From: a bacterium
GTDB taxonomy: Bacteria > Patescibacteriota > Andersenbacteria > UBA10190 > CAIZMI01
Assembly (NCBI GenBank): GCA_030647555.1
Contig: JAUSJG010000008.1
Span: forward strand, 129,467 to 193,466
DNA length: 64,000 nucleotides
Reading direction: 5' to 3'
Under the pieces are notes generated by a model. It saw only the letters and a list, made by a program, of their open reading frames with translations, ran no database searches and was not told the DNA's origin. The position numbers and the translations under genes are program-made. Within the stretch, counting starts at the first letter, position 1; every line of letters starts with the position of its first letter. Positions 38,076-53,536 of this stretch are shown here, piece after piece.

Positions 38076-39152
38076 ATGATTCGTTTTTCCGACCCGTTGT
38101 TAGTTGCCCACACCGCCAAAATTTTGATTTTAACAATTGTTTCATTTGCGGTGGCAATTTTATCGACGCCACTCATGACGCACTTTCTTTTTAAGTACAA
38201 GTTTGCCAAGTCGATTCGTGAAGGTTCAACGCCAATTTATACCGCTCTGCACAAAAAAAAAGAGGGAACACCAACGAGTGGAGGAATAATAATTTGGGGT
38301 ACGGTGTTGGTGCTCGCTATTGGCTTGTCAATTTTAGGATCGATTTTTCCTGAAAGTATTTTTTCGTGGCTATCATTTTTGACACGTCGTGAAACACTTT
38401 TGCCGTTGGGCGCGTTAGTGGCGTGTGCTTTGGTGGGATTGGTTGATGATTACTGGAATGTCCGAAAAATCGGTCCATTTGGTGGGGGGTTAAGGATGAT
38501 GCACCGGATTATTGTTTATACGGTAATCGCGATAATTGGTGCCTGGTGGTTTTATTATAAACTGGGTTGGAACCAAATTCATGTTCCGGCGATTGGTGAT
38601 TTTATAATCGGTTTTTGGTACGTTCCGCTATTTATCTTTGTCATCGTGGCGACCGCCTTTTCGGTTAATGAGGCGGACGGCTTAGACGGTCTTGCGGGCG
38701 GAATAATGCTTTTCTGTTTCGGGGCTTTTGGAATAATCGCATTTTCGAAGGGAATGGTAGATTTGGCGGTTTTTTGTGGTGTGATTATCGGTGCGTTGCT
38801 GGCTTTTCTCTGGTTCAATGTATATCCGGCGCGCTTTATTATGGGGGATACCGGCGCGATGAGTTTGGGAACAACATTGGGAGTGATCGCGATGCTCACC
38901 GATTCGGTTTTAGTTTTACCAATTATCGGTCTGCCGTTGGTGATTGAGTCACTTTCCGTTATTATTCAAATTACCAGTAAAAAAATTCGACACAAGAAAG
39001 TTTTTCTTTCCGCGCCGATTCATCATCATTTTGAAGCACTCGGCTGGCCGGAAACAAAAGTGACAATGCGTTTTTGGATTATCGCCGCCATGTCCGCCAC
39101 CGTAGGAATTATTATCGGGATTATTGGTGGCGGGAAACAGTCGATATTGTAG
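38076..39152 (+). CDS. mraY: phospho-N-acetylmuramoyl-pentapeptide transferase
   Basis: The motifs VDDYWN, NEADGLDGLAGG, GDTGAMSLG and HHHFE are present, with 10 TM helices. Confidence 0.85.
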   Translation: MIRFSDPLLVAHTAKILILTIVSFAVAILSTPLMTHFLFKYKFAKSIREGSTPIYTALHKKKEGTPTSGGIIIWGTVLVLAIGLSILGSIFPESIFSWLSFLTRRETLLPLGALVACALVGLVDDYWNVRKIGPFGGGLRMMHRIIVYTVIAIIGAWWFYYKLGWNQIHVPAIGDFIIGFWYVPLFIFVIVATAFSVNEADGLDGLAGGIMLFCFGAFGIIAFSKGMVDLAVFCGVIIGALLAFLWFNVYPARFIMGDTGAMSLGTTLGVIAMLTDSVLVLPIIGLPLVIESLSVIIQITSKKIRHKKVFLSAPIHHHFEALGWPETKVTMRFWIIAAMSATVGIIIGIIGGGKQSIL

Positions 39153-39330: not shown

Positions 39331-39426
39331 ACGTCATTTGATAATTTATGATTTGAAAATTAATTGAAAATTGGTCATTGATAATTGAAATTTATTGTAT
39401 TCGGTGATTCAGTTCTATGTGCTATT

Positions 39427-40536
39427 ATGAAAAAAATAGCAATGAAAAAAACGCCTGATCTAATTTTGTTACTCGCCATCATCGCCCTTGTCTCCTTGGG
39501 CAGTTTAATGTTGGTGTCCGCATCATCTGTATTGGGGTTGGACTTGCACAATGATCCTTATTTCTTTGTTCGTCATCAATTGTATTACGGGATATTGCCC
39601 GGTTTGTTTTTACTTATTGTCACGATGTTTGTTCCATATACGTTTTGGCGACGTGCCGTTGTGCCAATTTTGGTTGGGGTGGTTATTCTTCTCTTGATGG
39701 TCTTTGTACCCCAGTTTCAGATGTCTTATGGTGGAGCGTCACGTTGGGTGCGTTTGGGTTTTATCTCCGTTCAACCTGCCGAATTTGCCAAACTCGCGGT
39801 TATTCTTTATTTGGCGGCATTGTTTTCCAGTCGTGAAGAGAAACATGGTCATGTGCATGATACACTGATTCCATTTTTAATTGTTGTTGGGCTGATTGGT
39901 TTTCTCATTATTAAACAACCGGATATAGGTACATTGGTGGTGGTTACTAGCGCGTCCTTGATTATTTATTATCTTGCCGGGGCAAGCTGGAAGCATCTTT
40001 GGATGGTGATTGGTGGTGGATTAGGGACTTTGATTGTTTTAATTCGTCTTGCGCCATATCGCATGGCGCGTTTTACCACCTTTCTTCATCCCGAGTTGGA
40101 TCCAAAGGGGATTGGCTACCAAGTCCACCAAGCATTGCTGGCAGTAGGGTCGGGTGGAATTTGGGGATTAGGCTTTGGAAGAAGTCGACAAAAGTTTCGT
40201 TATCTGCCGGAACCGGCGGGTGATTCAATCTTTGCCATTGCTTCCGAAGAATTGGGATTTTTGCGGATTAGTATCTTGTTGAGTCTGTATATTTTTATTA
40301 TTATTCGGGGTTATCAAATTGCGCGTAAGGCGCCGGATATGTTTAGTAAATTAGTGGCCGGCGGAATTACATCTTGGTTTTTTGTGCAAGCAGTTGTGCA
40401 CATTGGGGCGAATCTTTCGATCTTTCCCTTAACTGGCATTCCGTTACCACTCGTTTCTTATGGAGGATCGGCGATTGTGATAACGCTTGTGGGAGCGGGG
40501 ATACTGCTGAATATCTCACGATATTCGAACGATTAA
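39427..40536 (+). CDS. ftsW: SEDS-family peptidoglycan glycosyltransferase (FtsW/RodA)
   Basis: A polytopic ORF with the C-terminal ...PLTGIPLPLVSYGGSA... signature. Its position between mraY and murG supports ftsW. The start was trimmed to MKKIAMKK. Confidence 0.7.
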   Translation: MKKIAMKKTPDLILLLAIIALVSLGSLMLVSASSVLGLDLHNDPYFFVRHQLYYGILPGLFLLIVTMFVPYTFWRRAVVPILVGVVILLLMVFVPQFQMSYGGASRWVRLGFISVQPAEFAKLAVILYLAALFSSREEKHGHVHDTLIPFLIVVGLIGFLIIKQPDIGTLVVVTSASLIIYYLAGASWKHLWMVIGGGLGTLIVLIRLAPYRMARFTTFLHPELDPKGIGYQVHQALLAVGSGGIWGLGFGRSRQKFRYLPEPAGDSIFAIASEELGFLRISILLSLYIFIIIRGYQIARKAPDMFSKLVAGGITSWFFVQAVVHIGANLSIFPLTGIPLPLVSYGGSAIVITLVGAGILLNISRYSND

Positions 40537-40739: not shown

Positions 40740-41936
40740 ATGCGTATCGTTCTAACCGGTGGTGGCTCCGGTGGTCATTTGACGCCTTTGGTTTCGGTTG
40801 CCGATACCCTAAAGCGCATGTATCACGAAGGTGAGATTAGTTTTCCGGAAAGCCGAAATAGTGGCCTTGAAATTAGGTATGTTGGCGTGGTTACAGAAAT
40901 TGATAAGTCGATTCTGGAAAAAGCCGATATTCCATATGAACACATTCCATCGGGCAAAATTAGGCGTTATTTATCGGGCGCGCCGCTTACGGCAATGGAA
41001 ATGTTTGTTCAACTTCCATTCGGAATTTTGCGGGCTTTTTGGCGGATGTATATTTTGATGCCCGAAGTGGTTTTCAGTAAAGGTGGTTACGGATCAATTC
41101 CTGTTGTTATTGCGTCCTGGGTTTATCGGATTCCGATTTTAATGCACGAAACGGATATTGTGCCGGGATTATCTAATAAAAAATTATCGCGCTTTGCATC
41201 GGCGATTGTGGTGGGCTTCCGAAAAGCAGAACAATATTTTAAACAAGATCGGGTTTTTGTCGCCGGTACACCGTTGCGCGAAATCTTTTACAAATTACCG
41301 GACAGAGAAACAGCGCGAAGAGAATTACAATTACATGATCGCAAGCCGGTGTTGTTTGTAACTGGTGGAAGTCAGGGTGCGCAACGGATAAATAACGTGA
41401 TTTTAGAAATGCTGATTCGTGTGTTACCGGATTTTCAGGTGGTGCATCAAGTGGGGCAACTTAATTTGGAACCGGTACAGGAGTTTGTAAGAAGTACGCT
41501 GGGAAATTTTCCAGACATTAGTGATTATCACGTCTTGGGTTTTATCGACGAACGCACGATGGCGAATTGTTTTTCAGCCTCGGATCTTGTTGTTTCCAGG
41601 GCAGGTGGAACAACCCTGGCGGAATTAGCCGTGGCGGGGAAGCCATCTGTTTTAATTCCCTTGGGAGAGTCCGCTAATAATCACCAGTGGGAAAATGCCT
41701 ATTTCTATCGTGAGGCCGGTGCGGCGGTTGTATTAGACGAAAGCAATGTCTCGCCACCTTTGTTAGAAGCAACAATCCGTCGTGTCTTTCAACGTCAAAG
41801 TAATTTAGAATTAATGTCGTCTCGCGTCCGTGAGTTAGCCCGTCCATCCGCGTCGATAGATATAGCGCAATTATTGGTCCAAATGGGTCTTGGCTTCGTG
41901 CCAAGACGAAAATTGGAAGCAGTCAAGGAAAAGTAG
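40740..41936 (+). CDS. murG: UDP-GlcNAc:undecaprenyl-PP-MurNAc-pentapeptide GlcNAc transferase
   Basis: The N-terminus has RIVLTGGGSGGHLTPLVSVAD. The C-terminus has ...VTGGSQGAQRIN... and ...SRAGGTTLAELAVAGKPSVLIP.... Confidence 0.8.
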   Translation: MRIVLTGGGSGGHLTPLVSVADTLKRMYHEGEISFPESRNSGLEIRYVGVVTEIDKSILEKADIPYEHIPSGKIRRYLSGAPLTAMEMFVQLPFGILRAFWRMYILMPEVVFSKGGYGSIPVVIASWVYRIPILMHETDIVPGLSNKKLSRFASAIVVGFRKAEQYFKQDRVFVAGTPLREIFYKLPDRETARRELQLHDRKPVLFVTGGSQGAQRINNVILEMLIRVLPDFQVVHQVGQLNLEPVQEFVRSTLGNFPDISDYHVLGFIDERTMANCFSASDLVVSRAGGTTLAELAVAGKPSVLIPLGESANNHQWENAYFYREAGAAVVLDESNVSPPLLEATIRRVFQRQSNLELMSSRVRELARPSASIDIAQLLVQMGLGFVPRRKLEAVKEK

Positions 41937-42033: not shown

Positions 42034-42109
42034 TCGTGGGCATGCCAAGGTTGGGAGTTCAGGATTATCACCCAGATCTCGGGGGTTCGATTCCCCTCGT
42101 GTCCACGAT
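42034..42109 (+). other. tRNA-like fragment: canonical T-arm GGGGGTTCGATTCCCCT plus an 8-bp terminal pairing, but no complete cloverleaf
   Basis: The T-arm is at 42081-42097. gtcgtgg (42034-42040) pairs with ccacgat (42103-42109). No D-arm or anticodon arm could be built. caggattatcaccc (42058-42071) is complementary to ggtgataatcctg (42189-42201). Confidence 0.25.
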
Positions 42110-42336: not shown

Positions 42337-42365
42337 TTGACAATTTCCATTTTTGGGAGTATACT
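42337..42365 (+). promoter_or_regulatory. near-consensus sigma70 promoter TTGACA-N17-TATACT at the left edge of the GC-rich island
   Basis: ttgacaatttccatttttgggagtatact. Confidence 0.45.
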
Positions 42366-42371
42366 TATCTC

Positions 42372-42790
42372 TTAAATTAAAAAGCCAAAGCTCTGTACAC
42401 GATAAATCGCGCATAGCGCTTTGGCGAACAGGAGAGACCCATCCTTCGCTCATGAATGAGCTACGGAGGGCAAGGCGGATCGCAATTTCCACAATTGAAT
42501 AGACGAAGGGATTATGAGCAACAGCGACCTGGGCAAATATACCAGTAGTTCTCATAATCATCCTTTAAAAAGAGCACGGGGTTCTTCGGCGGCCCCTCCC
42601 TTTCGACAAAGGGAGGCCGGGAGGGATTCCGCGCTTCCGTCACTGCACATACTCCTGGCTCAAATTTATTTTATGCCGTATGCAGTATGCGCAGTGACGG
42701 GAAAAAATACCGGTGCTGTCCCGGTTAAATCTGTTTCGGTCGCGCATGACAGTAGCGACCAGTCGTCATAATCCGAAAAGGAAAAGACTC
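42372..42790 (+). ncRNA. candidate highly structured leader / ncRNA (about 420 nt)
   Basis: It carries four perfect hairpins in series: agccaaagc...gctttggcg, gattatgag...ctcataatc, cctccctttcgacaaagggagg and gtcactgcacatac...gtatgcgcagtgac. The 85-aa ORF track call at 42514 is low-complexity. Confidence 0.3.
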
Positions 42791-42991
42791 ATGACGACAA
42801 AGACCAAATTTCTGACCGTGGTGGCAGTGGGCCACCAGTATCGAACGCATGAACTGACCGGGGTTGCTGGCGAAGCGAAGGAAATCGTTCGCCAAGTGGC
42901 CAAACGCACGGATGCGTTTCGCCAGGAATATATCCTCCGGCGGTTGGTTACGCGCGAGCAACGGACGCTCGCACTGGCGACTACTCGATAA
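42791..42991 (+). CDS. hypothetical small basic protein (66 aa)
   Basis: An RBS (aaaaggaaaag) precedes the ATG. MTTKTKFLTVVAVGHQYRTHELTGVAGEAKEIVRQVAKR... Confidence 0.3.
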   Translation: MTTKTKFLTVVAVGHQYRTHELTGVAGEAKEIVRQVAKRTDAFRQEYILRRLVTREQRTLALATTR

Positions 42992-43083
42992 TCGTCGCCA
43001 CGAAAAAACCGACGGCTCTCTGTGGGTGTAGCTGTCGGTGATTAGTAGAAACACCCCTGATCAAAATTTACGGAAGACCAGAC

Positions 43084-43150
43084 ATCGCGTCTCGGTCTTC
43101 CTCCCATCAATGCCTAGTACACCGGCCTAAATTTATTTATTGCCGTTTTG
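43084..43150 (+). promoter_or_regulatory. conserved upstream element copy 1: inverted repeat CAATGCCTAGTACA...TGTACGAGGCATTG around CCGGCCTAAATTTATTTATTGCCG
   Basis: It is about 62 bp and nearly identical to 53081-53146. Confidence 0.55.
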
Positions 43151-43163
43151 TTGTACGAGGCAT

Positions 43164-43205
43164 TGACGGGAAAGTAGTTTTTTAGAGTCGACCAAACCGT
43201 CGCCA
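43164..43205 (+). promoter_or_regulatory. conserved 5'UTR copy 1 (GAGTCGACCAAACCGTCGCCATGGCGGGGAGGTCTTAACAA) with an embedded strong SD
   Basis: The same 42-mer, with 1-2 mismatches, lies at 52141-52182. Confidence 0.55.
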
Positions 43206-43239
43206 TGGCGGGGAGGTCTTAACAATTAGGAGAACAATC

Positions 43240-43551
43240 ATGGCAGGAACGTACAACGTGATCGTCGATGCCGCCGCCCCCGCCACGACCTTGAAAATCG
43301 GTTTTGGCAGTCCGGCCCAGAACGACCAGATCGTGAAGGATGCGGTCGCGGCCGTGAAGGCGCTCGGCTTGACCGGCGGGAAGCTGGTCAAGTTGAACGG
43401 GCCGGCTTCGTTGCCGGTGGCCGTCGCCATCGGGCACGAGGTGGCCCACCTGTTCGGGGCCGTCGCGGTGTTCGACCCGAAACTCGGGAACAAATACGTC
43501 GTGGTGGTGAGCCACGACCCCGATTTCGCGGTCGGTAGCGTCATCGAGTAG
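43240..43551 (+). CDS. island gene A: 103-aa protein resembling a degenerate (P-loop-less) copy of the NK-like domain of genes B and C
   Basis: LVKLNGPASLPVAVAIGHEVAHLFG aligns positionally with VILCGPPRSGKSCMRQGLKDAIKII of B. VVVVSHDPDFAVGSV resembles LVVVAEIHSDYNGAEDTV of B. The comparison was made by eye. Confidence 0.4.
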   Translation: MAGTYNVIVDAAAPATTLKIGFGSPAQNDQIVKDAVAAVKALGLTGGKLVKLNGPASLPVAVAIGHEVAHLFGAVAVFDPKLGNKYVVVVSHDPDFAVGSVIE

Positions 43552-43711
43552 GGTTCTTTCAGGCCAAATCATGGTTGATGCGGCCTAAATCGTACACGAA
43601 GGAGGTCCGAGTATGACGCTCGACCTCCTTCCTTTTCTTCAGAGCGCGACAAACGTTGTCGTGCGCTCAAGTAAAAGATTTTAAACCCGCCGCGGCGGGA
43701 AGGAGAAAATC

Positions 43712-44293
43712 ATGAAAGTCATACTTTGTGGTCCCCCGCGGAGCGGGAAGTCCTGCATGAGGCAGGGCTTAAAGGATGCGATTAAGATTATTCCGGGTGC
43801 ACCGTATCCGTATGTTATCACGGCGTGCCCGGACGGTGAGGGGGCTTGGTTCCAGGAAACTGTGAACCAGGACCCTGATTTGGCCAAGAGGTGCAAGGAT
43901 GCATACAAGGCCAAGTTCACGCCGGAATTTGTGCAGAGGATAGCGGATTCTGTGCAAAATTGCTCGCTACCGCTCACGCTCGTGGATATCGGTGGCATCC
44001 CGAGCGCGGAGAACGAGGCGATTTGCGCCTCGGCCACCCACGCCATTTTGTTGGCAGGCGACCTCGGCCGTTTGCCCGAGTGGCACGCGTTTTGCAAAAA
44101 ACTCGGGCTCGTTGTTGTTGCCGAGATCCACTCGGACTACAATGGGGCCGAGGACACCGTCCCCCAACTCGGCGAGGACGGCATCTATCGCGGTTCGGTT
44201 CACCATCTTGAACGAGGTGAACAGACCGCCGCCCGCCCGACGATTCGGGCGCTGGCCGAGATTCTCGTCGGGATGGTTACCGACAAGAATTGA
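43712..44293 (+). CDS. island gene B: small P-loop NTPase, nucleoside/polynucleotide-kinase-like (193 aa)
   Basis: Walker A MKVILCGPPRSGKS lies at the extreme N-terminus. The LTLVDIGG block is Walker-B-like. An RBS (ggaaggag) precedes the start. Confidence 0.55.
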   Translation: MKVILCGPPRSGKSCMRQGLKDAIKIIPGAPYPYVITACPDGEGAWFQETVNQDPDLAKRCKDAYKAKFTPEFVQRIADSVQNCSLPLTLVDIGGIPSAENEAICASATHAILLAGDLGRLPEWHAFCKKLGLVVVAEIHSDYNGAEDTVPQLGEDGIYRGSVHHLERGEQTAARPTIRALAEILVGMVTDKN

Positions 44294-44427
44294 TTTCTAA
44301 TCAACCAACGGTTGTGGGTTATCCTGTAAAACCCTCTTCTGATTCGAGAGTGTGTACTCTCGCTGATGACGCCGAAAGGCAGAAATCAGAAACTGAAATC
44401 AAAAAAAATTTTCGCGGAGGAGAACCG

Positions 44428-46122
44428 ATGCGAAGAGTAATTGTATGCGGGCCACCGCATTCGGGCAAGTCGGTGTTCCTGGCTAACCTGCAAAGGTTGT
44501 TGCCAGTTGAGCACCACATGCTCATCTTCGGTGCCCCCGATGGGGAGTGGCATTGGACCAACGGGGCCAACCAATCCCTCGTTCGCGAGACCCGCCAAAA
44601 GCGGAGTTTTTCGGATGACTGGTGCGACGGCATTCTTAATGCCATCGCGCAAGCCGAGCAACGGCTCGTTCTGGTTGACACCGGAGGAAAAAGACTCTCG
44701 CCGAACGACCGGATTTTCCGGGCGTGCGACGCCTTCATTATTCTCTCTTCTTCCAAGGAGGAGATAATTGAGTGGCGCCGCTTCGGCGAGGAAAACGGAT
44801 GCCTGTGCATTGCTGAATTGGATTCGGCGCTGCAAGGTGAAGATCAAATTTATCTGGACGCGAGCGATGGAATTCTCCGCGGACGGATAACTGGTCTGGA
44901 ACGGGGGCAGGAGATTGATTCCCCAGTTCTGGATGCAGTGGCAGGAAAACTTCGTAAAGTCATTGAGGTGAATGCCGAGATGACGGAAGCGGAGCTTCTG
45001 GCCAATATCAACGGGGCTAAGCTGGTTGACCACCTTGGGATCACGGATCGGACTGATCCTTACCTTGGTGTACGGCCATGGCACACGGCGCCGGCGTTGA
45101 AAATCACGGCCGTGGCGCGGAGGTTGGAAACGGTGCGGATTTGGAATGTCCGTGCCAGTTTTCTTTCGTGCGCGTTTGCGACAACACTGCCCGGCAAGGT
45201 GGAGCTCTTCGGAGTTTCCGATGGATATGTTCCATTGCCGAAGGTTGCGCCAAACGGCGACGGCGCGGGCGATCTGGCGTGGGAAGTCGCGGAATTTTCC
45301 GACTACACTTTGGTGGAGTATCGGAAAAACGGATTTTTCACAAAAGAGAAACTCGCCGATGTTGTGCCGCCGGTAGTGAACACCCGAAAGGGTGTTGTGC
45401 TGGCGACAGACGGTCCGCCGATCTGGCTGGACGCGACGATCGCAAGATCGTACGCGAAAGCCGGTGTGCCGTTTGTGGCTGTGTTTGTACCCGTTGAGTC
45501 GGGGCGAGTACAGCAGGACGGAACGCGGTGGGATGAGGCGCATCCGCAGGATGGGCCGTGCGTCGTTATTTATGGCGAAGCGGAAAAGGTGGGGGAAGTA
45601 ATTTCCGTGCCGATCTCGCTTCTGAAGTGGAATGGCGGCGGACGGCAGTGGCAACTGGGTTCCGGTGAGGTCGTAAAAGACCGACCGCATAGCCACGTGG
45701 CGACACATCCGTCGGTTTTGCCACTTGTCGGCGAAGCGCTTGCGCGAATTGAGTCCGCCGGGCGCGACAATATTGTGGAGGAAATAGACTTCGGACGGAC
45801 GGTGGGTGAGATGATTTGCGTCGAAACAAGTAATGACGACGAGATCGTTTTTGCACAACGTCAGAACCGAAAAGGACTGACGCGGTTTGTGAAAAACCGG
45901 CAACCCACGTTGTGTAACAGTGTTACGGTTTGTCTCACGAAAGCGGAAGGAAACGGCCATTACGTTTTGGCCACCGCTTTTGTGGGAAAGAGAGCGCCGG
46001 CAGAGCCGTGGGACGTGGAATGGGCGACGGAGCAATCCGTCCCGTTCTGGAACACCCACGCGCTTATCTGGGGCGCGGAAACTTTTTTGGCGGACACTGA
46101 AACGAATCGGTGTCCGTGGTAA
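44428..46122 (+). CDS. island gene C: N-terminal NK-like P-loop domain (paralogue of B) fused to an uncharacterised C-terminal region of about 380 aa
   Basis: MRRVIVCGPPHSGKSV, APDGEWHW (compare CPDGEGAW in B) and RLVLVDTGG are present. The start was trimmed to the ATG preceded by ggaggag; the ORF track start at 44290 lies inside the 3' end of gene B. Confidence 0.55.
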   Translation: MRRVIVCGPPHSGKSVFLANLQRLLPVEHHMLIFGAPDGEWHWTNGANQSLVRETRQKRSFSDDWCDGILNAIAQAEQRLVLVDTGGKRLSPNDRIFRACDAFIILSSSKEEIIEWRRFGEENGCLCIAELDSALQGEDQIYLDASDGILRGRITGLERGQEIDSPVLDAVAGKLRKVIEVNAEMTEAELLANINGAKLVDHLGITDRTDPYLGVRPWHTAPALKITAVARRLETVRIWNVRASFLSCAFATTLPGKVELFGVSDGYVPLPKVAPNGDGAGDLAWEVAEFSDYTLVEYRKNGFFTKEKLADVVPPVVNTRKGVVLATDGPPIWLDATIARSYAKAGVPFVAVFVPVESGRVQQDGTRWDEAHPQDGPCVVIYGEAEKVGEVISVPISLLKWNGGGRQWQLGSGEVVKDRPHSHVATHPSVLPLVGEALARIESAGRDNIVEEIDFGRTVGEMICVETSNDDEIVFAQRQNRKGLTRFVKNRQPTLCNSVTVCLTKAEGNGHYVLATAFVGKRAPAEPWDVEWATEQSVPFWNTHALIWGAETFLADTETNRCPW

Positions 46123-46132
46123 GGAACAAAAA

Positions 46133-46564
46133 ATGAAGACGTATGCAGTGGCAGTGGATGGTGGGCGGACGGGACACGCGGTGGCAACCCTGCGGGCCGA
46201 GATCAACCTCGGTCTGAAAAAGGGCTACGCGGGATTCCTTCAGGAAAAGCAGGAGGTCATTGACTTCCTGAAGGACCTGTACCGCACGGCAGTCGCGGCG
46301 GGACGGAACTACGTCCCGGTCTGCATCCAGCAGACGGAGATCGTCTACGCGTACCAGACTGGCGATGGTCCGGTAGCGGACGCCGAACCGGCATTGACCC
46401 TTTTTTCCGACAAGTCGCCACTTTATGCGGCGGACATGTCGGACGATCAGTGGAAGGCCGCCGTCGAGGAATTGGCAGCCGCGTTGGCTGATCGGTTCCA
46501 ACAGTTCCGGGTGTACGTGTCGTACATCCAAGTGGAGGTGAAGATCCTCCAGCAGGTGAAGTAG
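46133..46564 (+). CDS. island gene D: hypothetical 143-aa protein
   Basis: An RBS (aaggaac) precedes the ATG. MKTYAVAVDGGRTGHAVATL weakly resembles the N-terminus of gene A (MAGTYNVIVDAAAPATT). Confidence 0.4.
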   Translation: MKTYAVAVDGGRTGHAVATLRAEINLGLKKGYAGFLQEKQEVIDFLKDLYRTAVAAGRNYVPVCIQQTEIVYAYQTGDGPVADAEPALTLFSDKSPLYAADMSDDQWKAAVEELAAALADRFQQFRVYVSYIQVEVKILQQVK

Positions 46565-46588
46565 TACTTCTCCTGCGAATCGATCTTC

Positions 46589-46628
46589 GGCAAGTCCACG
46601 CATTGCGCGCGGACTTGCCACTTTTTTA
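46589..46628 (+). terminator. intrinsic terminator ggcaagtccacgcattgcgcgcggacttgcc + ACTTTTTT, followed by a second hairpin gtgttcgcgatgcgcgaacac
   Basis: A 9-bp GC stem followed by a U-tract. Confidence 0.55.
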
Positions 46629-46706
46629 AAGTTTATCAGTGGAAGTGTTCGCGATGCGCGAACACCTGATGGGCTTTTAGAAGTTTTTTTGAAAAGGAGA
46701 CACAGG

Positions 46707-47054
46707 GTGAAAAAAATCCTGTGGATGTCGCGCCACCGGCCGACCGCGAGGCAGATTAATGCCTTGCGCCAGATGCATGGCGCGGACGCGGTGGTGGAAC
46801 AGGAGGACCGTCCGTTTGACGACGCGCGAGAAATCGTGTGCCGGTACAGGCGAGATGGTTACGACGACATGGTGGTCGTCGCTCCGCTTTCAGTAATCGC
46901 GGTTTTGTGCCAGGAAGGCATTAGACCGCTTTGGTCCGAAGCCACCGAGGAAAACGATCCGAGAAAGATCGAATTTCGCGGCGCGCGCGGGCAAGGGTAT
47001 CGTTTCGTAAGGTTCCGCCGCATTAAGTGCGTGCGGGTTGAATTCGAAGAATAA
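46707..47054 (+). CDS. island gene E: 115-aa protein, a possible second degenerate NK-like paralogue
   Basis: There is a GTG start with an RBS (aaaggaga). KKILWMSRHRPTARQINALRQM aligns with KVILCGPPRSGKSCMRQGLKDA, but the GKS is lost. This is by-eye inference. Confidence 0.35.
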   Translation: MKKILWMSRHRPTARQINALRQMHGADAVVEQEDRPFDDAREIVCRYRRDGYDDMVVVAPLSVIAVLCQEGIRPLWSEATEENDPRKIEFRGARGQGYRFVRFRRIKCVRVEFEE

Positions 47055-47064
47055 GGAAAATGAG

Positions 47065-48279
47065 ATGAACGAAAAAATGAAAGCGGCGATTGCTCTGACG
47101 TCGAAGGTTCAGAGTGTAATGCGGGATGTGGAGACTCGGCACATTGGGCGCGCAGATGTGGTGCAAGCCACGTTTTTGGCGCTCGTGTCGGGGCGACCCG
47201 CGTTTTTCCTCGGCAGTCCCGGAACCGACAAAACCGGGGCGGTGCAGGACATGGCCAGGCAAATTGCCGGCGCCGTGTTCTATGATGTGTTGATGCCGAC
47301 CATCGTGTCGGTTGAGCAACTCCTTGTTGAGTCCACCTCGATCGAGGAAGCGTCCACAGCGGGAGGCGGAAAGTCAATCCGTACCCGTGACACGCTGGGA
47401 CGCGCCGCGTTGGCGCACTTGCTCTTTGCTGACGAGATCTGGAAAGCGGAACCCCGTGTTCTGCAGACCTTGATCGACTTGAGCAAGGGCGACGGGGTGC
47501 GTCACGAAGGCCAGATGGTGGCAACACCGTTGCTGGCTTTTCTCGCAGCATCGAACGAGTTGCCGGAAGCCGAGGGCAACCTCGGAGCGATCTGGTCTCG
47601 GATGACCATCCGCGTGGTGGTAAATCCGTTGGATCGCGCGGGCAAAAATGAGCTGGTGAAAGCCCGGCTCGCTCGCGCTACCGGAGGTAGCAAGACGGCC
47701 ACGCAGACGCTGACGCTCGCAGACATTGAAACTTTGCGAACGGCGCGAAAATACGTCGATATCCCGCAAGGCGTCATTGACGCAGTGTTGGATGTCTACC
47801 AGGAACTTGTTGACGACAAGTCAACGGACTTTTCCTGGGCGTGGGCGGATGACCGGCGGTTCGGTCGCGTGTTCGACGTCATGCAGGCGAAAGCTCTGCT
47901 TGACGGACGGACAGTGGTCAGCAAGCAGGATTTGGCGGTGCTGGAGTGGTTGCTCTGGGACGTTCCCGAGCACATTCCAGTCGTCAAAGCGAAGCTTGCT
48001 CCGTACTGTCGGACGCCGTTTTCCGACGCGCAGGAGGCGGTAGATGCACTGCTCACTCCGGGCGGAGTGGTCGAGTTGGTGCGAAACGGGGACAGGGTCA
48101 AGGGTGTTCAGGCTATCACGCAGTGTGAGGCCGCCCTGACCGAGCTGAAACGTCTCAAGGGGGAGGCGGACAGCGGGACGTCGTCTAGAATTGCCGACTT
48201 GGTAAAACAAGTCGAGGCAGTTAAAGATGACGTGATCGCAGTCGTGACCGGGGCCAAAATGCCCCAAAGGGGAAACTAA
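47065..48279 (+). CDS. MoxR-like AAA+ ATPase with a non-canonical Walker A (GSPGTDKT)
   Basis: VVQATFLALVSGRPAFFLGSPGTDKTG is the MoxR N-terminus. LLFADEIWKAEPRVLQTLIDL matches the Walker B / sensor region hhhhDE(I)(N/W)(R/K)A. The start was trimmed to MNEKMKAAIA after aaggaaaa. Confidence 0.7.
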   Translation: MNEKMKAAIALTSKVQSVMRDVETRHIGRADVVQATFLALVSGRPAFFLGSPGTDKTGAVQDMARQIAGAVFYDVLMPTIVSVEQLLVESTSIEEASTAGGGKSIRTRDTLGRAALAHLLFADEIWKAEPRVLQTLIDLSKGDGVRHEGQMVATPLLAFLAASNELPEAEGNLGAIWSRMTIRVVVNPLDRAGKNELVKARLARATGGSKTATQTLTLADIETLRTARKYVDIPQGVIDAVLDVYQELVDDKSTDFSWAWADDRRFGRVFDVMQAKALLDGRTVVSKQDLAVLEWLLWDVPEHIPVVKAKLAPYCRTPFSDAQEAVDALLTPGGVVELVRNGDRVKGVQAITQCEAALTELKRLKGEADSGTSSRIADLVKQVEAVKDDVIAVVTGAKMPQRGN

Positions 48280-48280
48280 G

Positions 48281-49957
48281 ATGGCCGAGAAGAAAGTCCG
48301 GCCGCTCACCCGGCAGGAGCTGATGCCCCAGCTGGTGACGGACGCGGATGCCTTCACGGCCCTGCGTTACATCCGTCACCGTGAGCAAATGCCGGCATTA
48401 CCCGAGCTTGCGGAAAAAGGACAGGAAGTCCTACCCGGAAGCGAAGGCGTGTTGGCGGATTTGTATGACGCGTTGTGGGATCCGGAGCCGAGCCTCAAGG
48501 AAGAGGTGGCGCCGGATCGGGAGTATTGGAAAAAACTCCTGGGCCAAACAATTGAAACGGCGGCCTTTCAGGAGTTGCACGCGGCTACACAGCTTAAGGA
48601 TCTGCAATCGGTCCTTGGGACAATCGCGATGGGCGAATCAGTCCTCGCGTTGGTATCAAAAAAGGACCGGGATGAACTCCAAAAGTTGAAAGAGGCGACG
48701 CAGGAAGCGGAAGACGTGGCGGACGAGGCGGGGCAGGCCGAAGCAAACGCGCAAGTGGCGCAAATGCTGGCGGATGCTGCTGCAGAACAGTCCGCGGGCG
48801 CGGGACAATCAGGTCAGCCGCAAACCGGTAAGCCTTCGGGCAAACCGGGAAGTGGCAAGGGACAGATGAGTCCCGACCAAGCGCGGAAAATCGCCAACGA
48901 GCTGGCGAAGACGGCGGCAAAAGCGCAAGCCGATGCCAAAGCCGCGCGGGAACAGGCCGATGAGAAACGGCTCAACGCGGAAATTCAGGCCGAGGATTTG
49001 TTGGGACAACCCGGCAGTGACAAGGCTGAGAAAAAACTGCGTGAGTTGACGCGAATCGGTTTGCAGGCCATCAAAGGTGCTCAAGCGAAGGTGGAGGAAG
49101 TTTCCGAAACCATCGAAGCTTGGGGGTTGGAGGATGGCGAGCTGACGCGCCAAGGGATTCCCGAAGCGTTGGCGCTTTTGCAACGCATGAAGCGAAGCGA
49201 AGCGCTGAAAAAGTTCGCCGGCCTTTTGGGTCGCCTGCGCAAAATCGCGGCGCGGAAAGCGCGTGCCAAAGTTTCGGGAGAAGGAGTGCGGGTCACGGTT
49301 CCGGAAACGGGTCGCGATATTCGCCGCGCTCACACCTCCGAATTGGTTGCACTTACTTCACCAGCCCTTCGTGTTAAAGGATTAACACGTTGGGCACGCG
49401 GTGAACTGCGGTTGGTAGGCCAGCGCGCCAAGCAAAAGCTTGGCCACGGTCCGGTGATCGTCTGTGAAGACGGATCCGGTTCGATGGATGGAGCCAAGCA
49501 ACAGTGGGCGAAAGGTGTGACGTTGTCACTCGCCCACTACGCGAAGATCCAAAAGCGGTCGTTCGGATGGGTGCTTTTTGACTCTGCTGTAAAGCAGGCG
49601 AAGGGTTACCCGCAAGGACGATTGTCTGCCGAGCAGATGCTGGAGCTGGCCGAGTCGCGGGCCGGCGGCGGAACGAATTTCGAAGTTCCGCTTCGCAAAG
49701 CCATGGAGATGATTCAGAAAGAAGGCCTCAAAAAAGCCGACATCTGTTTTATCACCGATGGCGAATGCGCGGTGAGCGATGAGTTTCTCCGGGAATTTCT
49801 GGCGGTCAAGAAGACGCACGAGGTCAACGTATTCACGGTTTTATGTGATGTTGGCTCGACGTCCGATGCGACCGTACGGCAGTTCTCGGATCGAGTGGTT
49901 CGCGTTTCCAGCTTCACGGCAGAAGAAGCGGAAAGTGCGGTGTTTGGTTCTTTGTAG
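48281..49957 (+). CDS. von Willebrand factor A (VWA) domain protein with a complete MIDAS; the N-terminal region plus a low-complexity acidic/Ala-Gln linker give a CobT/ViaA-like architecture
   Basis: VIVCEDGSGSMDG is DxSxS. ...GGTNFE supplies the Thr and ...FITDGEC the Asp. The start codon abuts the MoxR stop, consistent with translational coupling. Confidence 0.7.
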   Translation: MAEKKVRPLTRQELMPQLVTDADAFTALRYIRHREQMPALPELAEKGQEVLPGSEGVLADLYDALWDPEPSLKEEVAPDREYWKKLLGQTIETAAFQELHAATQLKDLQSVLGTIAMGESVLALVSKKDRDELQKLKEATQEAEDVADEAGQAEANAQVAQMLADAAAEQSAGAGQSGQPQTGKPSGKPGSGKGQMSPDQARKIANELAKTAAKAQADAKAAREQADEKRLNAEIQAEDLLGQPGSDKAEKKLRELTRIGLQAIKGAQAKVEEVSETIEAWGLEDGELTRQGIPEALALLQRMKRSEALKKFAGLLGRLRKIAARKARAKVSGEGVRVTVPETGRDIRRAHTSELVALTSPALRVKGLTRWARGELRLVGQRAKQKLGHGPVIVCEDGSGSMDGAKQQWAKGVTLSLAHYAKIQKRSFGWVLFDSAVKQAKGYPQGRLSAEQMLELAESRAGGGTNFEVPLRKAMEMIQKEGLKKADICFITDGECAVSDEFLREFLAVKKTHEVNVFTVLCDVGSTSDATVRQFSDRVVRVSSFTAEEAESAVFGSL

Positions 49958-49981
49958 CAGTAATTCTGCCACCGTTTGGGG

Positions 49982-50014
49982 AGTCCGGTTTTTGACTCCC
50001 CTCTTTTTTCTTCC
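49982..50014 (+). terminator. intrinsic terminator ggggagtccggtttttgactcccc + TCTTTTTTC
   Basis: An 8-bp stem followed by a U-tract. Confidence 0.55.
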
Positions 50015-50076
50015 TTTCCAGCTTCGTGTTGGAAGGAAAGAATTGAAGTAAACACAAAAACAAAAGGAGGCCTACC

Positions 50077-52038
50077 ATGGCCGAAGAAAAGTTGATTGTT
50101 TTGTTGGAAACCAGGGCGGGCAAGAATCCTGGCGAAGCGGTTGCCACCCACAACAGGCGGCAAATCGTCTTTTTGCCCCGAGGAACAACGGTTGGAGTCA
50201 ATGTCCGCGTCGTACTCGAAGAGATTACGACTAAAAAGGACAGCAACGGCCGTTCGATGTATCGCGGCGTACCCGCGCCAGTTGAGTACGTTGACAAGTG
50301 GAAGATCAACGGGGACGGAAGAGTTTCCAAAATCACCGTCTCTAAGGATTGGCTCGGCGGCGAACGGGAGGAAGGCGTAATTGAAACGCGTCAACCCGCC
50401 ACGCGTGACGGGTCACCGTGGACACAGACCGAAAGCACAGTAAGTTGGGGTGCAACTCTGGCAAACTGTGCCGTTGATCTCGTGGACACAACGACTACTC
50501 CGTTGGAAACGGAGTATGTCGAAGCGGGTCAACTCGTCTGGAGAAAGACGAGTGAACGAGTGGGGAAAAATACGCGTCGCGTTACCGTCACGGGTATTCG
50601 CGTAACCGCGTTAGATGCCACAACGTGGCAACCTGCCTATCCGCCAGACTGGCAGATTTCAGCGTCTGTGGCGTACGATGGCGGAACAGTTTCGACCAGC
50701 GTAACGTGGGCGAACGCGCCCAAAGAAACGCGGGACGAGATCGAGAACCGTTATTGTGTGTGCGCTTGCAGTCGACAGCGATACGATGTTCAGAATTCCG
50801 ATGGTTACGCCAAGTGCGAAAAGTGTCGGGAGAAAGAACACTGCGTGCGCTGTGGTAAGCAGGTCAAGGTTGCGGTCATTGCTGACCGCCTGATCTGCGC
50901 GAACTGCAGACCGTATGAAGATCGGGAACAGCTCATTAATCGGGTTGTGCCTAATCAGACACGGCAGGAGTTGGCGCAACAAGCGACACGGCTTTTGGCT
51001 GGAAATGTTGTGCCACGGGAGGCGGGAGAAGCGATTGTTCGCTCCACGCTCGGTCAAGTTGAACCGGATTGGAAACGTAATGGCGTAGTCGAGAAGTGTG
51101 TTGGGTACGCCTGGTATTACTTCTGCGAGGAGGGAGTCTACGGTTCCAAGTTTCCGTCGGCAGCGCTGCAGATTCTGCAGGGACTTCCGCAGGCGACCGG
51201 TAACGGCCTTGTTGACCTGGTTTCTTGGGTGGCTGGTCGTCAAAAACAGGAGGAGTGTGAGCGTTGTGGTGACTTCTTCTGTGAAAGTCAGGCTGGGAGA
51301 TTCTTCACTCCTTCGCCGAGCGAAAGTGAATTGCAAAACCTTTGTGTAGCAGTTCGGCTTCGCGGGTCGGAGGCAGATCGTATCGAGGCCCTACAGAAGT
51401 ATCGGGAACTGGTCGAAAAGCTAGGTTCCGATGCTAAGCAGGTAAGCGAAATCGCGGAAATCCTAAACTCGGATGAGCAGGACTACGCAGCAGTTCTTGT
51501 CAAAATTCACAACCTCGGAAAAGATCTGGCTTCGGCTGAACGAGGAGAAATTCTCGTGAATTTCGGCGGTCACTTTCGCATGATGGGCTACACTGGCCAG
51601 GCTCAATATTGGGTCATTCGGCCAGATGGTTCAGAACGCGAGCCTGACGAAGTTGATTACCGGAAACGGTACACTTCGGAAGGTAATAAAAAGTGGTGGC
51701 TGGTTAGTTCGGATGAGTTGGCGATTTCGTGGTTTAAGGGCACTACTGCCTCGAGCCATCAATGTGTCGTCGACAAACTTCCGGCTGGTGGGTGCACGCC
51801 CGAGCAACTGGCAACTGTTGCTCAACTCGAGCAAGAGCTTTCGGCTCGGTTCGAGGGCTCTCATGGTTGCAGTGGTGATCCGAGTCCTAACATCGGTGAG
51901 GGATGGAACCTCAAGTCGAAGGATGAACCGGACGTGGATGAACCCTACGAAATCGGTCCGCCCGCTCCAGCCAACACGTTGGATGTCCACAAACTTTTCG
52001 GCGGGCAGGTGCGAAAAAAACCCGCCGGTCGAAAGTAG
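50077..52038 (+). CDS. island gene F: 653-aa protein with a TRAM/OB-like N-terminus and two Cys-rich zinc-ribbon clusters
   Basis: The RBS is aaaaggagg. GEAVATHNRRQIVFLPRGTTVGVNVRVVLEEI follows a TRAM-like pattern. CVCACSRQRYD...CEKCREKEHCVRCGKQ...CANCRP and CERCGDFFCE are Cys clusters. Confidence 0.5.
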   Translation: MAEEKLIVLLETRAGKNPGEAVATHNRRQIVFLPRGTTVGVNVRVVLEEITTKKDSNGRSMYRGVPAPVEYVDKWKINGDGRVSKITVSKDWLGGEREEGVIETRQPATRDGSPWTQTESTVSWGATLANCAVDLVDTTTTPLETEYVEAGQLVWRKTSERVGKNTRRVTVTGIRVTALDATTWQPAYPPDWQISASVAYDGGTVSTSVTWANAPKETRDEIENRYCVCACSRQRYDVQNSDGYAKCEKCREKEHCVRCGKQVKVAVIADRLICANCRPYEDREQLINRVVPNQTRQELAQQATRLLAGNVVPREAGEAIVRSTLGQVEPDWKRNGVVEKCVGYAWYYFCEEGVYGSKFPSAALQILQGLPQATGNGLVDLVSWVAGRQKQEECERCGDFFCESQAGRFFTPSPSESELQNLCVAVRLRGSEADRIEALQKYRELVEKLGSDAKQVSEIAEILNSDEQDYAAVLVKIHNLGKDLASAERGEILVNFGGHFRMMGYTGQAQYWVIRPDGSEREPDEVDYRKRYTSEGNKKWWLVSSDELAISWFKGTTASSHQCVVDKLPAGGCTPEQLATVAQLEQELSARFEGSHGCSGDPSPNIGEGWNLKSKDEPDVDEPYEIGPPAPANTLDVHKLFGGQVRKKPAGRK

Positions 52039-52054
52039 TTTCACTGTTCTTTTT

Positions 52055-52090
52055 GGGGTCGTTGTTGGATACAACGACCCCTCTTTTCTC
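52055..52090 (+). terminator. intrinsic terminator ggggtcgttgttggatacaacgacccc + TCTTTTCTC
   Basis: An 11-bp stem. The same hairpin recurs at 52993-53026. Confidence 0.55.
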
Positions 52091-52140
52091 TAGCTCATGA
52101 GTGCTAGTCGCACTTGGTGAGCTGGAGTGAAAGTTTTTTC

Positions 52141-52182
52141 GGAGTCGACCAACCCGTCGCCATGGCGGGGAGGTCTTAACAA
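52141..52182 (+). promoter_or_regulatory. conserved 5'UTR copy 2 (GGAGTCGACCAACCCGTCGCCATGGCGGGGAGGTCTTAACAA)
   Basis: Matches 43164-43205. Confidence 0.55.
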
Positions 52183-52195
52183 CGGGAGAAAAAAC

Positions 52196-52948
52196 ATGGC
52201 GCGTTTCATTATGGTGGTGGTGATGATGATGGTGGTGGTGACCGCGCGGGCCGAGACGTTGACCGGAGAAAAGGTCGACGTTAGGATCGACGTGGAAGGC
52301 GTGTCCACGCGGTTTTTTGAGCCGCGAGATATCGCGGGTACGGTGGACGGAGGGTCGCAGGATGCGACCTATCGGTTCCGATACACCCTTCTCCAGCCCG
52401 GCGATGCGTATTCGATCGCGGTGCAATCACGGTCGAATGGTCTTCGGTACGGCATTGGAGTCGCCGTCGATGGCCGCTGTATCCTGACCGGCATGAAGGT
52501 GCCGGCGACGGTACAAATGGCCTCGAGTTGGCCGAACATGTACGTCGTTGGTGGCCGCGGTGGCGAGTTTCGCGGCTGGCGGGAGGATGCCGGAAACATC
52601 CGGCGGTTCGTGGTTTCCAGTGAGGACCGGTCGCTGGCGGCGACGCTTTGGAACGATCGATCCGCAACGGGGACGATCGTTGTCTCCATCTTCCGAGAAA
52701 CCCCATCGCAGGAGCCCATGATGAAGGGCGAGCGCGGGGTAAAAGGGCTCGGGACGGCCGCCGGCGAGCGCGAGGAATCGCGCGTCGTGTCGGTAGACTT
52801 TACATCTCGCCCGGTCGCGTACGAAGTCTTCGTACTTCGGTATGCGTCGAAACCCGAGTTGAAGAAGCTCGGGGTGTGGACGGAGGAGGCAGTCCCGAAC
52901 CGGTTCTGGCCGACGGAGAAACCGTTCATCGGCCGAATCCCCGAGTAG
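52196..52948 (+). CDS. island gene G: secreted protein (signal peptide MARFIMVVVMMMVVVTARA, about 250 aa), function unknown
   Basis: It has a hydrophobic N-terminus with an ARA cleavage-like site. The start was trimmed to the Met after gggagaaaaaac. Confidence 0.5.
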   Translation: MARFIMVVVMMMVVVTARAETLTGEKVDVRIDVEGVSTRFFEPRDIAGTVDGGSQDATYRFRYTLLQPGDAYSIAVQSRSNGLRYGIGVAVDGRCILTGMKVPATVQMASSWPNMYVVGGRGGEFRGWREDAGNIRRFVVSSEDRSLAATLWNDRSATGTIVVSIFRETPSQEPMMKGERGVKGLGTAAGEREESRVVSVDFTSRPVAYEVFVLRYASKPELKKLGVWTEEAVPNRFWPTEKPFIGRIPE

Positions 52949-52992
52949 TAGTTTTTCCCCGAAAAGGATTTCGGGACGAGTGTTCTTTGTCC

Positions 52993-53026
52993 GGGGTCGT
53001 TGTTGGAAACAACGACCCCGCTTTTC
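52993..53026 (+). terminator. intrinsic terminator ggggtcgttgttggaaacaacgacccc + GCTTTTC
   Basis: Near-identical to the hairpin at 52055. Confidence 0.55.
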
Positions 53027-53080
53027 TAAGGTTCATCGGAAACAGTTCGGTGGGTCTTAACGAAAGAACAAAATCTTTTC

Positions 53081-53146
53081 CATCAATGCCTAGTACACCG
53101 GCCTAAATTTATTTATTGCCGACAGTTGTACGAGGCATTGACGGGA
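53081..53146 (+). promoter_or_regulatory. conserved upstream inverted-repeat element copy 2
   Basis: catcaatgcctagtacaccggcctaaatttatttattgccgacagttgtacgaggcattgacggga. Confidence 0.55.
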
Positions 53147-53191: not shown

Positions 53192-53536
53192 ATGACGCGC
53201 ATGGAACGTGTCGTTGATTGGTTTTTGGGTGTGTATTTTCCGTTCATTACTATTTTTTCTGGCTTGTTTTTCGTGGTGTGGGTATATTTGACCACCAGGC
53301 CGGTACACGATTTTCCGGAATGGGGTTTTGTCTTGTTTATCTGTTGGGTGGTGGTGGCTGTGCCGGCTCTTCCTTTGATGATCCTCACGATAATTCAGGA
53401 AAAAATTCGGCGGATGAAAGATGAGGCCCAGTTTTATCGGGACTGCTACGTCATCACTTTTTGTGATGAGGGTGGCATCACCGAAGAGTCGGCCGTCGAA
53501 ACTGGAAATCCCTACCAAAGTCCGATTTATGAGTGA
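53192..53536 (+). CDS. island gene H: small 2-TM membrane protein (114 aa)
   Basis: The RBS is aaaggggac. There are two hydrophobic helices, then a soluble tail ending CDEGGITEESAVETG. Confidence 0.45.
   Translation: MTRMERVVDWFLGVYFPFITIFSGLFFVVWVYLTTRPVHDFPEWGFVLFICWVVVAVPALPLMILTIIQEKIRRMKDEAQFYRDCYVITFCDEGGITEESAVETGNPYQSPIYE

Follow-up and report, generated by a model that had tools for sequence, protein, structure and literature searches.

A 64,000-nucleotide stretch of a Patescibacteria (candidate phyla radiation, CPR) genome (contig JAUSJG010000008.1 of assembly GCA_030647555.1; hereafter the window) carries a block of eight genes, A to H, that is rich in guanine and cytosine (GC). 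We conclude that this region forms an operon with two linked modules, carried by a horizontally acquired GC-rich island. Genes A to D belong to accessory families of type III CRISPR-Cas systems and include Csx3 domains and P-loop NTPases, while genes E to H center on a MoxR-type AAA+ ATPase and its VWA partner. Our best overall explanation, to which we assign a probability of about 0.5, is that the region encodes a CRISPR-detached conflict module that senses a nucleotide signal or RNA. We hold the domain identities given below with high confidence, together with the finding that genes A and E are not paralogs of the P-loop genes.

The P-loop and Csx3 domains of genes A to C

Genes B (43712..44293, +; 193 amino acids, aa) and C (44428..46122, +; 564 aa) share a GTPase-like P-loop NTPase domain. 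It stands alone in B, which corresponds to the 'AAA' half of a Csx3-AAA protein, and occupies residues 1-185 of C, where it is followed by a linker (186-275), a degenerate Csx3 domain (276-400) and a C-terminal domain (401-564). The start of C is most likely the ATG at 44428 (MRRVIVCGPPHSGKS), which agrees with all homologs and with the Logan gene call. An initial annotation of this DNA had listed the open reading frames (ORFs) and quoted their motifs, and these are present as described: GPPRSGKS (Walker A), ACPDGEGAW and LVDIGG (Walker B) in B; GPPHSGKS, GAPDGEWHW and LVDTGG in C; and the segments NGPASLPVAVAIG in A and ILWMSRHRPTARQ in E. The similarity of B to the N-terminus of C is found both with BLASTP (E 4e-21, 30% identity over 181 aa) and with HHalign, using profiles built from each one's own homologs (probability 100%, E 1.3e-52). 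The two have in common GPPxSGKS, a PDGE(G/W)xW loop after strand 2, an hhhhDxGG Walker B and a C-terminal RGxhxxLERG. Judged by sequence, B and C(1-185) are true P-loop paralogs in which Walker A and Walker B are intact. The family to which B belongs is large (604 representative clusters at E 0.001 or better), and its P-loop domain occurs alone as well as joined to one or two Csx3 domains, in every order.

Published accounts label the P-loop domain fused to Csx3 as an ATPase, 'AAA' or 'AAA+', whose function is unknown (PMC6546367, PMC8284326, PMC9676260, PMC12409355). We considered and rejected an AAA+ assignment, as the domain has neither the Walker B Glu nor AAA+ fold neighbors: the Walker B Asp of B and C is followed by xGG, the catalytic Glu of ASCE ATPases is missing, and no AAA+ protein is found among the top 50 PDB fold matches of an AlphaFold2 model of C (62 homologs, mean predicted local distance difference test score (pLDDT) 92.3, predicted template modeling score 0.89). 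After Csx3, these matches are MeaB/MMAA, MinD, FlhG, HypB, Wzc, FtsY, Soj, Cfd1, KRAS, shikimate kinase and a sugar kinase, and the high-probability matches in a BFVD fold search are Rab, Ras and Ran GTPases. The sole 'AAA' label obtained is Pfam AAA_18, at 27.4 bits under its cut-off of 29.4. A profile of stand-alone P-loop members matches the Walker B region of GTPase Der (5e-4), and weak MMR_HSR1 matches appear in 4 of 15 members. We therefore class the domain as a GTPase/SIMIBI-like member of the kinase-GTPase division. The description 'nucleoside-kinase-like' in the initial annotation was right as to the P-loop and only loosely right as to the kinase, since SIMIBI and Ras-like GTPases together with a few small kinases are the best structural neighbors. 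Kinase-type matches are weak (NF006746, E 0.12; KTI12 in 3 of 15 members; AroK and sugar kinase at ~1e-2 by fold), and those of GTPase type (Der, MMR_HSR1, MeaB, MinD, FtsY, Ras) are equal or better.

Gene A (43240..43551, +; 103 aa) is a stand-alone Csx3/Crn3 domain, on which four independent tests agree. It matches Pfam PF09620 (8.8e-7, 29.1 bits, cut-off 21), positions 11-99 of the PADLOC Csx3-AAA model (1.1e-19) and the plain Csx3 model (3e-14), and its family aligns with Crn3/Csx3 of Archaeoglobus fulgidus (AfCsx3) at 97.2% HHalign probability (E 3.5e-11); against TIGR02579 it scores 28.1 bits, under the equivalog cut-off of 55.4. Gene A also shares with the fused Csx3-AAA proteins, found with B as query, the series G(P)xS...AHxxAH..G/AxAxFDPKxG...SHDPD. 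Because B fits the remaining part of the same PADLOC model (positions 108-285, 7e-60), we interpret A and B as a Csx3-AAA protein split into two genes, here separated by a 160-nt spacer. The split recurs in a related locus from another sample (L020) and, in the reversed order B-A, in L013.

The AfCsx3 residues with assigned roles are H57, H60, D69, R71 and H80 (Athukoralage et al., PMC7371418). Gene A has His, His, Asp, Lys and His at these positions in the HHalign alignment, which places a one-residue insertion before the second His; an alternative phmmer alignment places Ala at H60 and His at H61. Given this catalytic-type set, gene A is plausibly an active ring nuclease. The segment NGPASLPVAVAIG (the 'NGPASLP...GHEVAH' stretch), which had been read as a decayed Walker A motif, comprises the ligand loop of Csx3 and the first part of the helix that bears His.

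These results bear on the central claim of the initial annotation, according to which A, B, C and E form one tandem family of kinase-like P-loop domains with alternating intact (B, C) and degenerate (A, E) Walker A motifs, A and E being pseudo-enzymes. Against either P-loop profile, HHalign gives 0.3% for A and 0.1-0.2% for E, compared with 100% for B against C. BLASTP finds nothing between A and C, A matches the unrelated Csx3/Crn3 family, and E shows no similarity to a P-loop in fold or in PDB sequence matches. The initial annotation had stated that results of this kind would overturn its claim; judged by sequence profiles and predicted fold, the claim is overturned for two of the four members, A and E. 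The sole support for a four-member family is the spacing, judged by eye, of Gly/Pro-rich segments after the first beta-strand, an impression that any beta-loop-alpha unit can give, and we consider such a family extremely improbable.

The second Csx3 domain, in gene C, is markedly different. C matches the PADLOC AAA-Csx3 model (C3a67) at 3e-48 over positions 4-353 of 382, and its linker contains an invariant DP(F/Y)LG(V/I)RPxH. Its Csx3 domain superposes on AfCsx3 (3wzi/6yud, Foldseek) with E 3e-5, a template modeling score of 0.82-0.87 and a root-mean-square deviation of about 2 Å, and is related to it by sequence (phmmer 1e-6; HHalign 96.9%). A direct HHalign comparison of the Csx3 domains of A and C gives 0.4%, and their link holds solely via AfCsx3. 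At the positions of H57, H60, D69 and R71, C has R, A, V and V, with H80 unaligned, and the C family has an invariant PVESGR in place of YDPRLG; the domain almost certainly cannot cleave. The pairing of an active with an inactive paralog that the initial annotation had proposed for the P-loops is therefore present, but among the Csx3 domains: that of A looks intact, and that of C has lost the catalytic residues. Pairing of an active with a dead domain usually separates a sensing from a catalytic role.

The C-terminal domain of C matches PHROG phrog_23674, of unknown function (2e-20). GAP32-like jumbo phages and T4-like Pseudomonas phages encode stand-alone homologs of it (~155 aa, 35-41% identity), from genes sited among tRNA genes. 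Residues kept across CPR and phage proteins (HxxxH, EA, D, RxxR, TRFVxNR, TAxxG, ExxD, FWxxHALxW) form a conservation pattern that looks enzymatic. A BFVD fold search was swamped by P-loop matches and did not help to assign the domain. In one related locus (L030), it is called as a separate ORF behind a 383-aa AAA-Csx3 protein. A linkage of the phage homologs to MoxR-VWA, as suspected from GAP32, was not borne out, their neighbors being an ATP-grasp protein, a classical AAA protein and an RNaseH-like protein.

The MoxR-VWA module and its linkage to the Csx3-NTPase genes

Gene D (46133..46564, +; 143 aa) belongs to the Mvol_0529 family of type III CRISPR accessory proteins (PADLOC PDLC01067, 1.5e-6), and its homologs adjoin C in four related loci (L012, L013, L016, L020). 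Downstream of it begins the second module. The initial annotation was correct in placing the P-loop genes beside an AAA+ ATPase: gene F (47065..48279, +; 404 aa) is a MoxR-type AAA+ ATPase with intact Walker motifs (PF20030 bpMoxR, 3.3e-20, 72.5 bits with a cut-off of 27; AAA_lid_8, 1.5e-10; AAA_5, 1.2e-6) that also matches RavA (NF010054) at 3e-25, below the cut-off of that model. Gene G (48281..49957, +; 558 aa) encodes its VWA partner, with an intact metal ion-dependent adhesion site (MIDAS) motif DGSGS; it matches PF13519 VWA_2 (29.3 bits, cut-off 27), a ViaA-like model (1.7e-12) and phrog_24053 (8.5e-58), and ends with the VWA domain, a beta-propeller being missing. Gene H (50077..52038, +; 653 aa), which carries CxxC zinc-ribbon motifs, has no Pfam (none with E below 0.4), PADLOC or NCBIfam match. 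Its 44 homologs are every one unnamed or CPR-labeled, and it follows the VWA gene in seven related loci (L006, L008, L012, L013, L014, L016, L020); we regard it as a CPR-restricted third partner of MoxR-VWA.

Gene E (46707..47054, +; 115 aa), with its start most likely at 46707, encodes a small conserved alpha/beta protein of a family with at least 142 clusters at 56-83% identity. Its AlphaFold2 model (pLDDT 94) has a beta-alpha-beta-alpha-beta-alpha order followed by a basic beta-hairpin. No match was found in Pfam, NCBIfam, PADLOC or PHROGs, and its profile retrieved nothing among PDB sequences; the best PDB fold match (Foldseek) has E 0.045, and P-loop NTPases are absent from the 50 matches listed. 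The gene stands alone in four loci (L002-L005), lies directly 5' of MoxR-VWA-H without a Csx3 gene in two (L006, L007) and, on IMG/VR viral contigs, is found beside MoxR and VWA (L028) or beside a VWA ORF (L025). Based on these contexts, E belongs with the MoxR-VWA module and not with the P-loop genes. The idea that E might be one of the small CARF-like ring nucleases (Csx15, Csx16, Csx20) found no support: PADLOC, NCBIfam and Pfam gave no match, and Foldseek gave just a weak one, to a viral SAVED ring nuclease (probability 0.41).

The two modules are linked well beyond this genome. A C-type gene with MoxR and VWA immediately downstream is found in nine of eleven distinct loci (the window, L008, L012, L013, L014, L015, L016, L020 and L021), the others being L010, with a DEAD/HA2 helicase instead, and L017, which is truncated. 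L020 has the full A-H order at 70-92% protein identity, and L030 combines a shorter AAA-Csx3 with MoxR, VWA, a DEAD helicase and, further downstream, HD_4. The taxonomic labels of the related loci are all Patescibacteria except that of L014, labeled Gammaproteobacteria. The genes around C vary: a Csx3 and a P-loop gene in the window, a STIV_B116-like (DUF1874) gene 5' of C in L010, and an HD_4 phosphohydrolase gene between C and MoxR in L008 and L021. DUF1874 is the AcrIII-1/Crn2 ring-nuclease family (PMC12409355). Candidate signal-degrading enzymes substitute for each other beside C-type and AAA-Csx3 genes: Csx3 in the window, the DUF1874-like ring nuclease in L010, and HD_4 in L008, L021 and L030. 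DEAD/HA2 helicases likewise recur (L010, L029, L030), and gene E, the C-terminal domain of C and the VWA protein all have phage homologs.

A 438 kb contig of Bipolaricaulota (L029) encodes a 393-aa AAA-Csx3 protein whose Csx3 domain resembles gene A; it adjoins the gene for a divergent 1,470-aa DEAD/HA2/OB_NTP_bind helicase, and there are no cas genes within 10 kb. Detachment of Csx3-NTPase proteins from CRISPR is therefore not limited to CPR bacteria.

The island, its borders and upstream elements

The island is a ~10.5 kb block (roughly 42500-53000) located between murG and murC, in a region of cell-envelope genes: MraY (38076-39152), FtsW (39385-40536) and MurG (40740-41936) on one side, and MurC (54154-55572) and MurB (56028-56900) on the other. 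Its GC content is 50-62%, compared with 41-45% for the surrounding genome, and genes A-H all lie on the + strand within the GC-rich block. Nine loci with flanks were compared (L006, L008, L010, L012, L014, L016, L021, L030 and the window), and in eight of them the GC content of the island, which carries the C, MoxR and VWA genes, exceeds that of the flanks by 7-20 percentage points. The excess is seen despite a protein identity of just 50-70% between loci; it could reflect a constraint on the composition of these genes or else transfer, more than once, from a source rich in GC.

Window positions 43116-53109 were independently assembled as a 9,994-bp Logan contig (L001), and Logan gene calls provide the likely starts of C, E, F (47065) and I (52196). 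The contig ends fall inside both perfect copies of a 68-nt direct repeat (43104-43171 and 53080-53146, 9,976 nt from start to start), of which a degenerate copy lies at 42637-42678. The repeat forms a long imperfect hairpin (CCATCAATGCCTAGTACA...TTGTACGAGGCATTGACGG), and its copies stand before gene A, before the membrane-protein ORF J and before a small ORF, s1 (42791-42991); the related locus L020 lacks it. The repeat may serve as a promoter or operator, or be a scar left by recombination. We considered the island as a circular or viral element and rejected this, as the contig ends merely lie inside the repeat and no C-type gene occurs on IMG/VR contigs; no PHROG matches to mobility genes were found on the island.

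A putative control region upstream of the operon (43104..43225, +) consists of the 68-nt repeat and a 48-nt leader (43178-43225) with a palindrome (CGCCATGGCG), located directly upstream of gene A. A second copy of the leader (52135-52182, 94% identity) lies upstream of gene I, and the leader is 94% conserved 5' of the Csx3 gene in L020 (L020 88-138), which comes from a different sample. The leader may be a shared regulatory element of 5' untranslated regions. Gene I (52196-52948; 250 aa) has an N-terminal hydrophobic signal-like segment, its own leader copy and its own terminator hairpin, and gene J (53192-53536), which the second 68-nt repeat precedes, codes for a membrane protein of 114 aa; I and J have no family match and are not conserved in the related loci.

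A 71-nt tRNA-like element (42038-42108, +) lies between the murG stop and the island. It matches the Rfam model for transfer-messenger RNA (tmRNA) with its two ends joined (26.2 bits, gathering score 47; E 2e-8), and ARAGORN made no tRNA or tmRNA call across the whole window; the element may be a degenerate tRNA or a tmRNA-like integration target. A sigma-70-type promoter near consensus (42337-42365, +; TTGACA, 17 nt, TATACT; 11 of 12 matches) lies in an AT-rich stretch at the left edge of the island and is directed into a 250-nt GC-rich stretch before s1. This stretch, in which we found no convincing ORF and Rfam found nothing, may be a small RNA or a long leader.

In six loci (L006, L008, L010, L013, L015, L030), the island lies just 3' of a gene for a large protein (~850-1200 aa, +) and an oppositely oriented gene for a TrmB-like regulator. 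This pair, which is missing from the window, suggests a conserved variable-region hotspot or a regulatory link.

Functional interpretation and comparison with known systems

The region looks like a conflict-system setting, as the initial annotation had supposed, and it is probable that it is a mobile conflict-type system. The mechanism we propose is far more tentative. In it, C would be a sensor-effector, whose dead Csx3 domain would bind, without cleaving it, either an RNA end or a signal of the oligoadenylate type, cyclic or linear. Molecules of C would stack head-to-tail, like Csx3 dimers around cyclic tetra-adenylate (cA4), the GTPase-like NTPase domain would gate this assembly, and the C-terminal domain, for which 'effector' is a guess, would damage or process a target. 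Gene A, with the help of B, would act as a brake by destroying the signal and resetting the system, and MoxR-VWA-H together with E would load, remodel or dismantle the complex, in line with the proposal made for the ternary MoxR-vWA systems of conflict (PMC7159879). The signal would originate elsewhere in the genome or from an invader, as its source is not encoded in the window. We speculate, at clearly less than even odds, that the whole is a CRISPR-independent conflict system of CPR bacteria in which an NTPase with a dead Csx3 sensor and a phage-shared effector is controlled by MoxR-VWA and reset by a split Crn3.

Several observations weigh against a signaling module. Its main weakness is that the signal generator is not in sight and that the Csx3 domain of C does not have the cA4 contacts. 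No nucleotide cyclase, Cas10 or CRISPR array was found within the 64-kb window, a Pfam scan of ten further window ORFs revealed no cas family, and the gene calls of L008, L010, L021, L029 and L030 likewise include no cyclase, Cas10, CRISPR array or cas gene; the signal is for this reason hypothetical. Neither in the window nor in the annotated related loci does a type III cas cassette stand next to the accessory-family genes A-D. The cA4-contact residues of AfCsx3 (S44, G45, R46, R71) read A, T, D and V in C, whose Csx3 domain may have a different ligand or a role in assembly alone. Sequence searches of Pfam and PDB gave no match for the C-terminal domain, and its fold is not recognizably catalytic. 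In PADLOC-DB 2.0.0, cas-accessory models alone match, to A-D, and E, F, G, H and I have no match; as there is no model for F, G and H, a defense role is putative. Finally, a terminator-like hairpin follows gene G, and H could accordingly be transcribed separately.

The chief alternative is a module for RNA processing or repair that involves no cyclic nucleotide signal. In it, the Csx3 domains would work on the 3' ends of RNA, these ends would be modified or resealed by the P-loop NTPase and the C-terminal domain, and MoxR-VWA would assemble the complex. AfCsx3 was first described as a Mn-dependent deadenylating exoribonuclease, and its RNA-cleaving activity (PMC7371418) fits such a role, as do the DEAD/HA2 (DEAH-type) helicases recurring beside AAA-Csx3 genes, the lack of a cyclase or Cas10 nearby and the altered cA4-contact residues of C. 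The position of the phage homologs of the C-terminal domain among tRNA genes points the same way, yet it may be incidental because their neighbors vary. However, ligase, RtcB, Pnk and other known repair enzymes are absent from all loci examined, and the DUF1874 and HD_4 genes in the corresponding position of some loci fit signal turnover better; we judge an RNA module to be unlikely. We find it less likely still that the genes are anti-defense cargo of an integrated or mobilizable element, whose Csx3 proteins (DUF1874 in relatives) would degrade or sponge the type III signals of a host, as AcrIII-1 does. The foreign GC content, the perfect direct repeats on both flanks, the tRNA-like element at the left border, the separate Logan contig and the viral homologs of E, VWA and the C-terminal domain are what such cargo would look like, and a dead Csx3 domain could be a sponge. 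Yet the island has no integrase, replication, capsid or transfer gene, IMG/VR viral contigs carry no C-type gene, the 68-nt repeat is absent from L020, and the same chromosomal position by the TrmB-like gene is taken in six other CPR genomes, which resembles a variable region of the host.

The constituent families are already known: Csx3-AAA, AAA-Csx3 and Mvol_0529 as type III accessory families, and the MoxR-vWA ternary systems. Csx3-AAA (Shah et al. 2019 cluster 35, e.g. CYB_0599; Synechocystis Slr7080) has the same two domains in the same order as A and B, and its fused members share the HxxAH, FDPK.G and SHDPD motifs with gene A; here, however, the protein is split in two genes, lies away from a type III CRISPR-Cas locus and belongs to a CPR host rather than a cyanobacterium. 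AAA-Csx3 (Shah et al. 2019 cluster 67, C3a67, e.g. Caur_2269) has an N-terminal P-loop followed by Csx3, as in C, but C has an extra 164-aa C-terminal domain (phrog_23674), no catalytic His/Asp/Arg and MoxR-VWA instead of cas neighbors. AfCsx3 (AF1864; PDB 3WZI, 6YUD), whose fold the domain of C matches and whose profile A and that domain match at 97%, stands alone as an enzyme and is encoded in a type III CRISPR locus. In the HHalign alignment, gene A has counterparts of H57, H60, D69 and H80 and a Lys in place of R71; the domain of C is predicted to be inactive.

The second module most resembles the MoxR-vWA ternary systems (Kaur, Burroughs, Iyer and Aravind 2020, PMC7159879). PF20030, which was built from them, is the best match of F, and the order is alike: F, a MoxR AAA+ protein, is immediately followed by the vWA/MIDAS protein G, then by a third conserved protein and variable associated genes. 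Csx3 is a rare effector domain fused in the VMAP systems of that survey, which is the only paper we found with both 'Csx3' and 'MoxR' and whose habit statistics do not extend to CPR bacteria. In contrast to the described systems, H matches no Pfam family, VMAP-C or iSTAND, and G has no C-terminal beta-propeller or effector; none of the defined third components (VMAP-C, iSTAND, FtsH or a vWA-fused beta-propeller) was found in H or G. RavA-ViaA of Escherichia coli has the same pairing of a MoxR-class AAA+ ATPase and a VWA protein, but F and G score far under the equivalog cut-offs (89 vs 681 bits and 47 vs 500 bits, respectively), and the neighbors and presumed role differ.

Type III CRISPR-Cas is uncommon in CPR bacteria. 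We found no paper that links Csx3-NTPase proteins to MoxR-VWA or describes Csx3-NTPase proteins in CPR bacteria. Compared with the known systems, the locus adds a strong, unreported linkage of the Csx3-NTPase set to MoxR-VWA, a C-terminal domain common with jumbo phages, the natural occurrence of a split form (A, B) next to a fused form whose Csx3 domain is predicted to be dead (C), and the classification of the Csx3-fused domain as a GTPase-like P-loop (DxGG Walker B) and not an AAA+ ATPase. If our interpretation is true, it would for the first time place the enigmatic Csx3-fused 'AAA' domain in a functional context and would mean that Csx3-based signaling has escaped type III CRISPR-Cas; the compact nine-gene cassette makes the function of Csx3-NTPase fusions directly testable.

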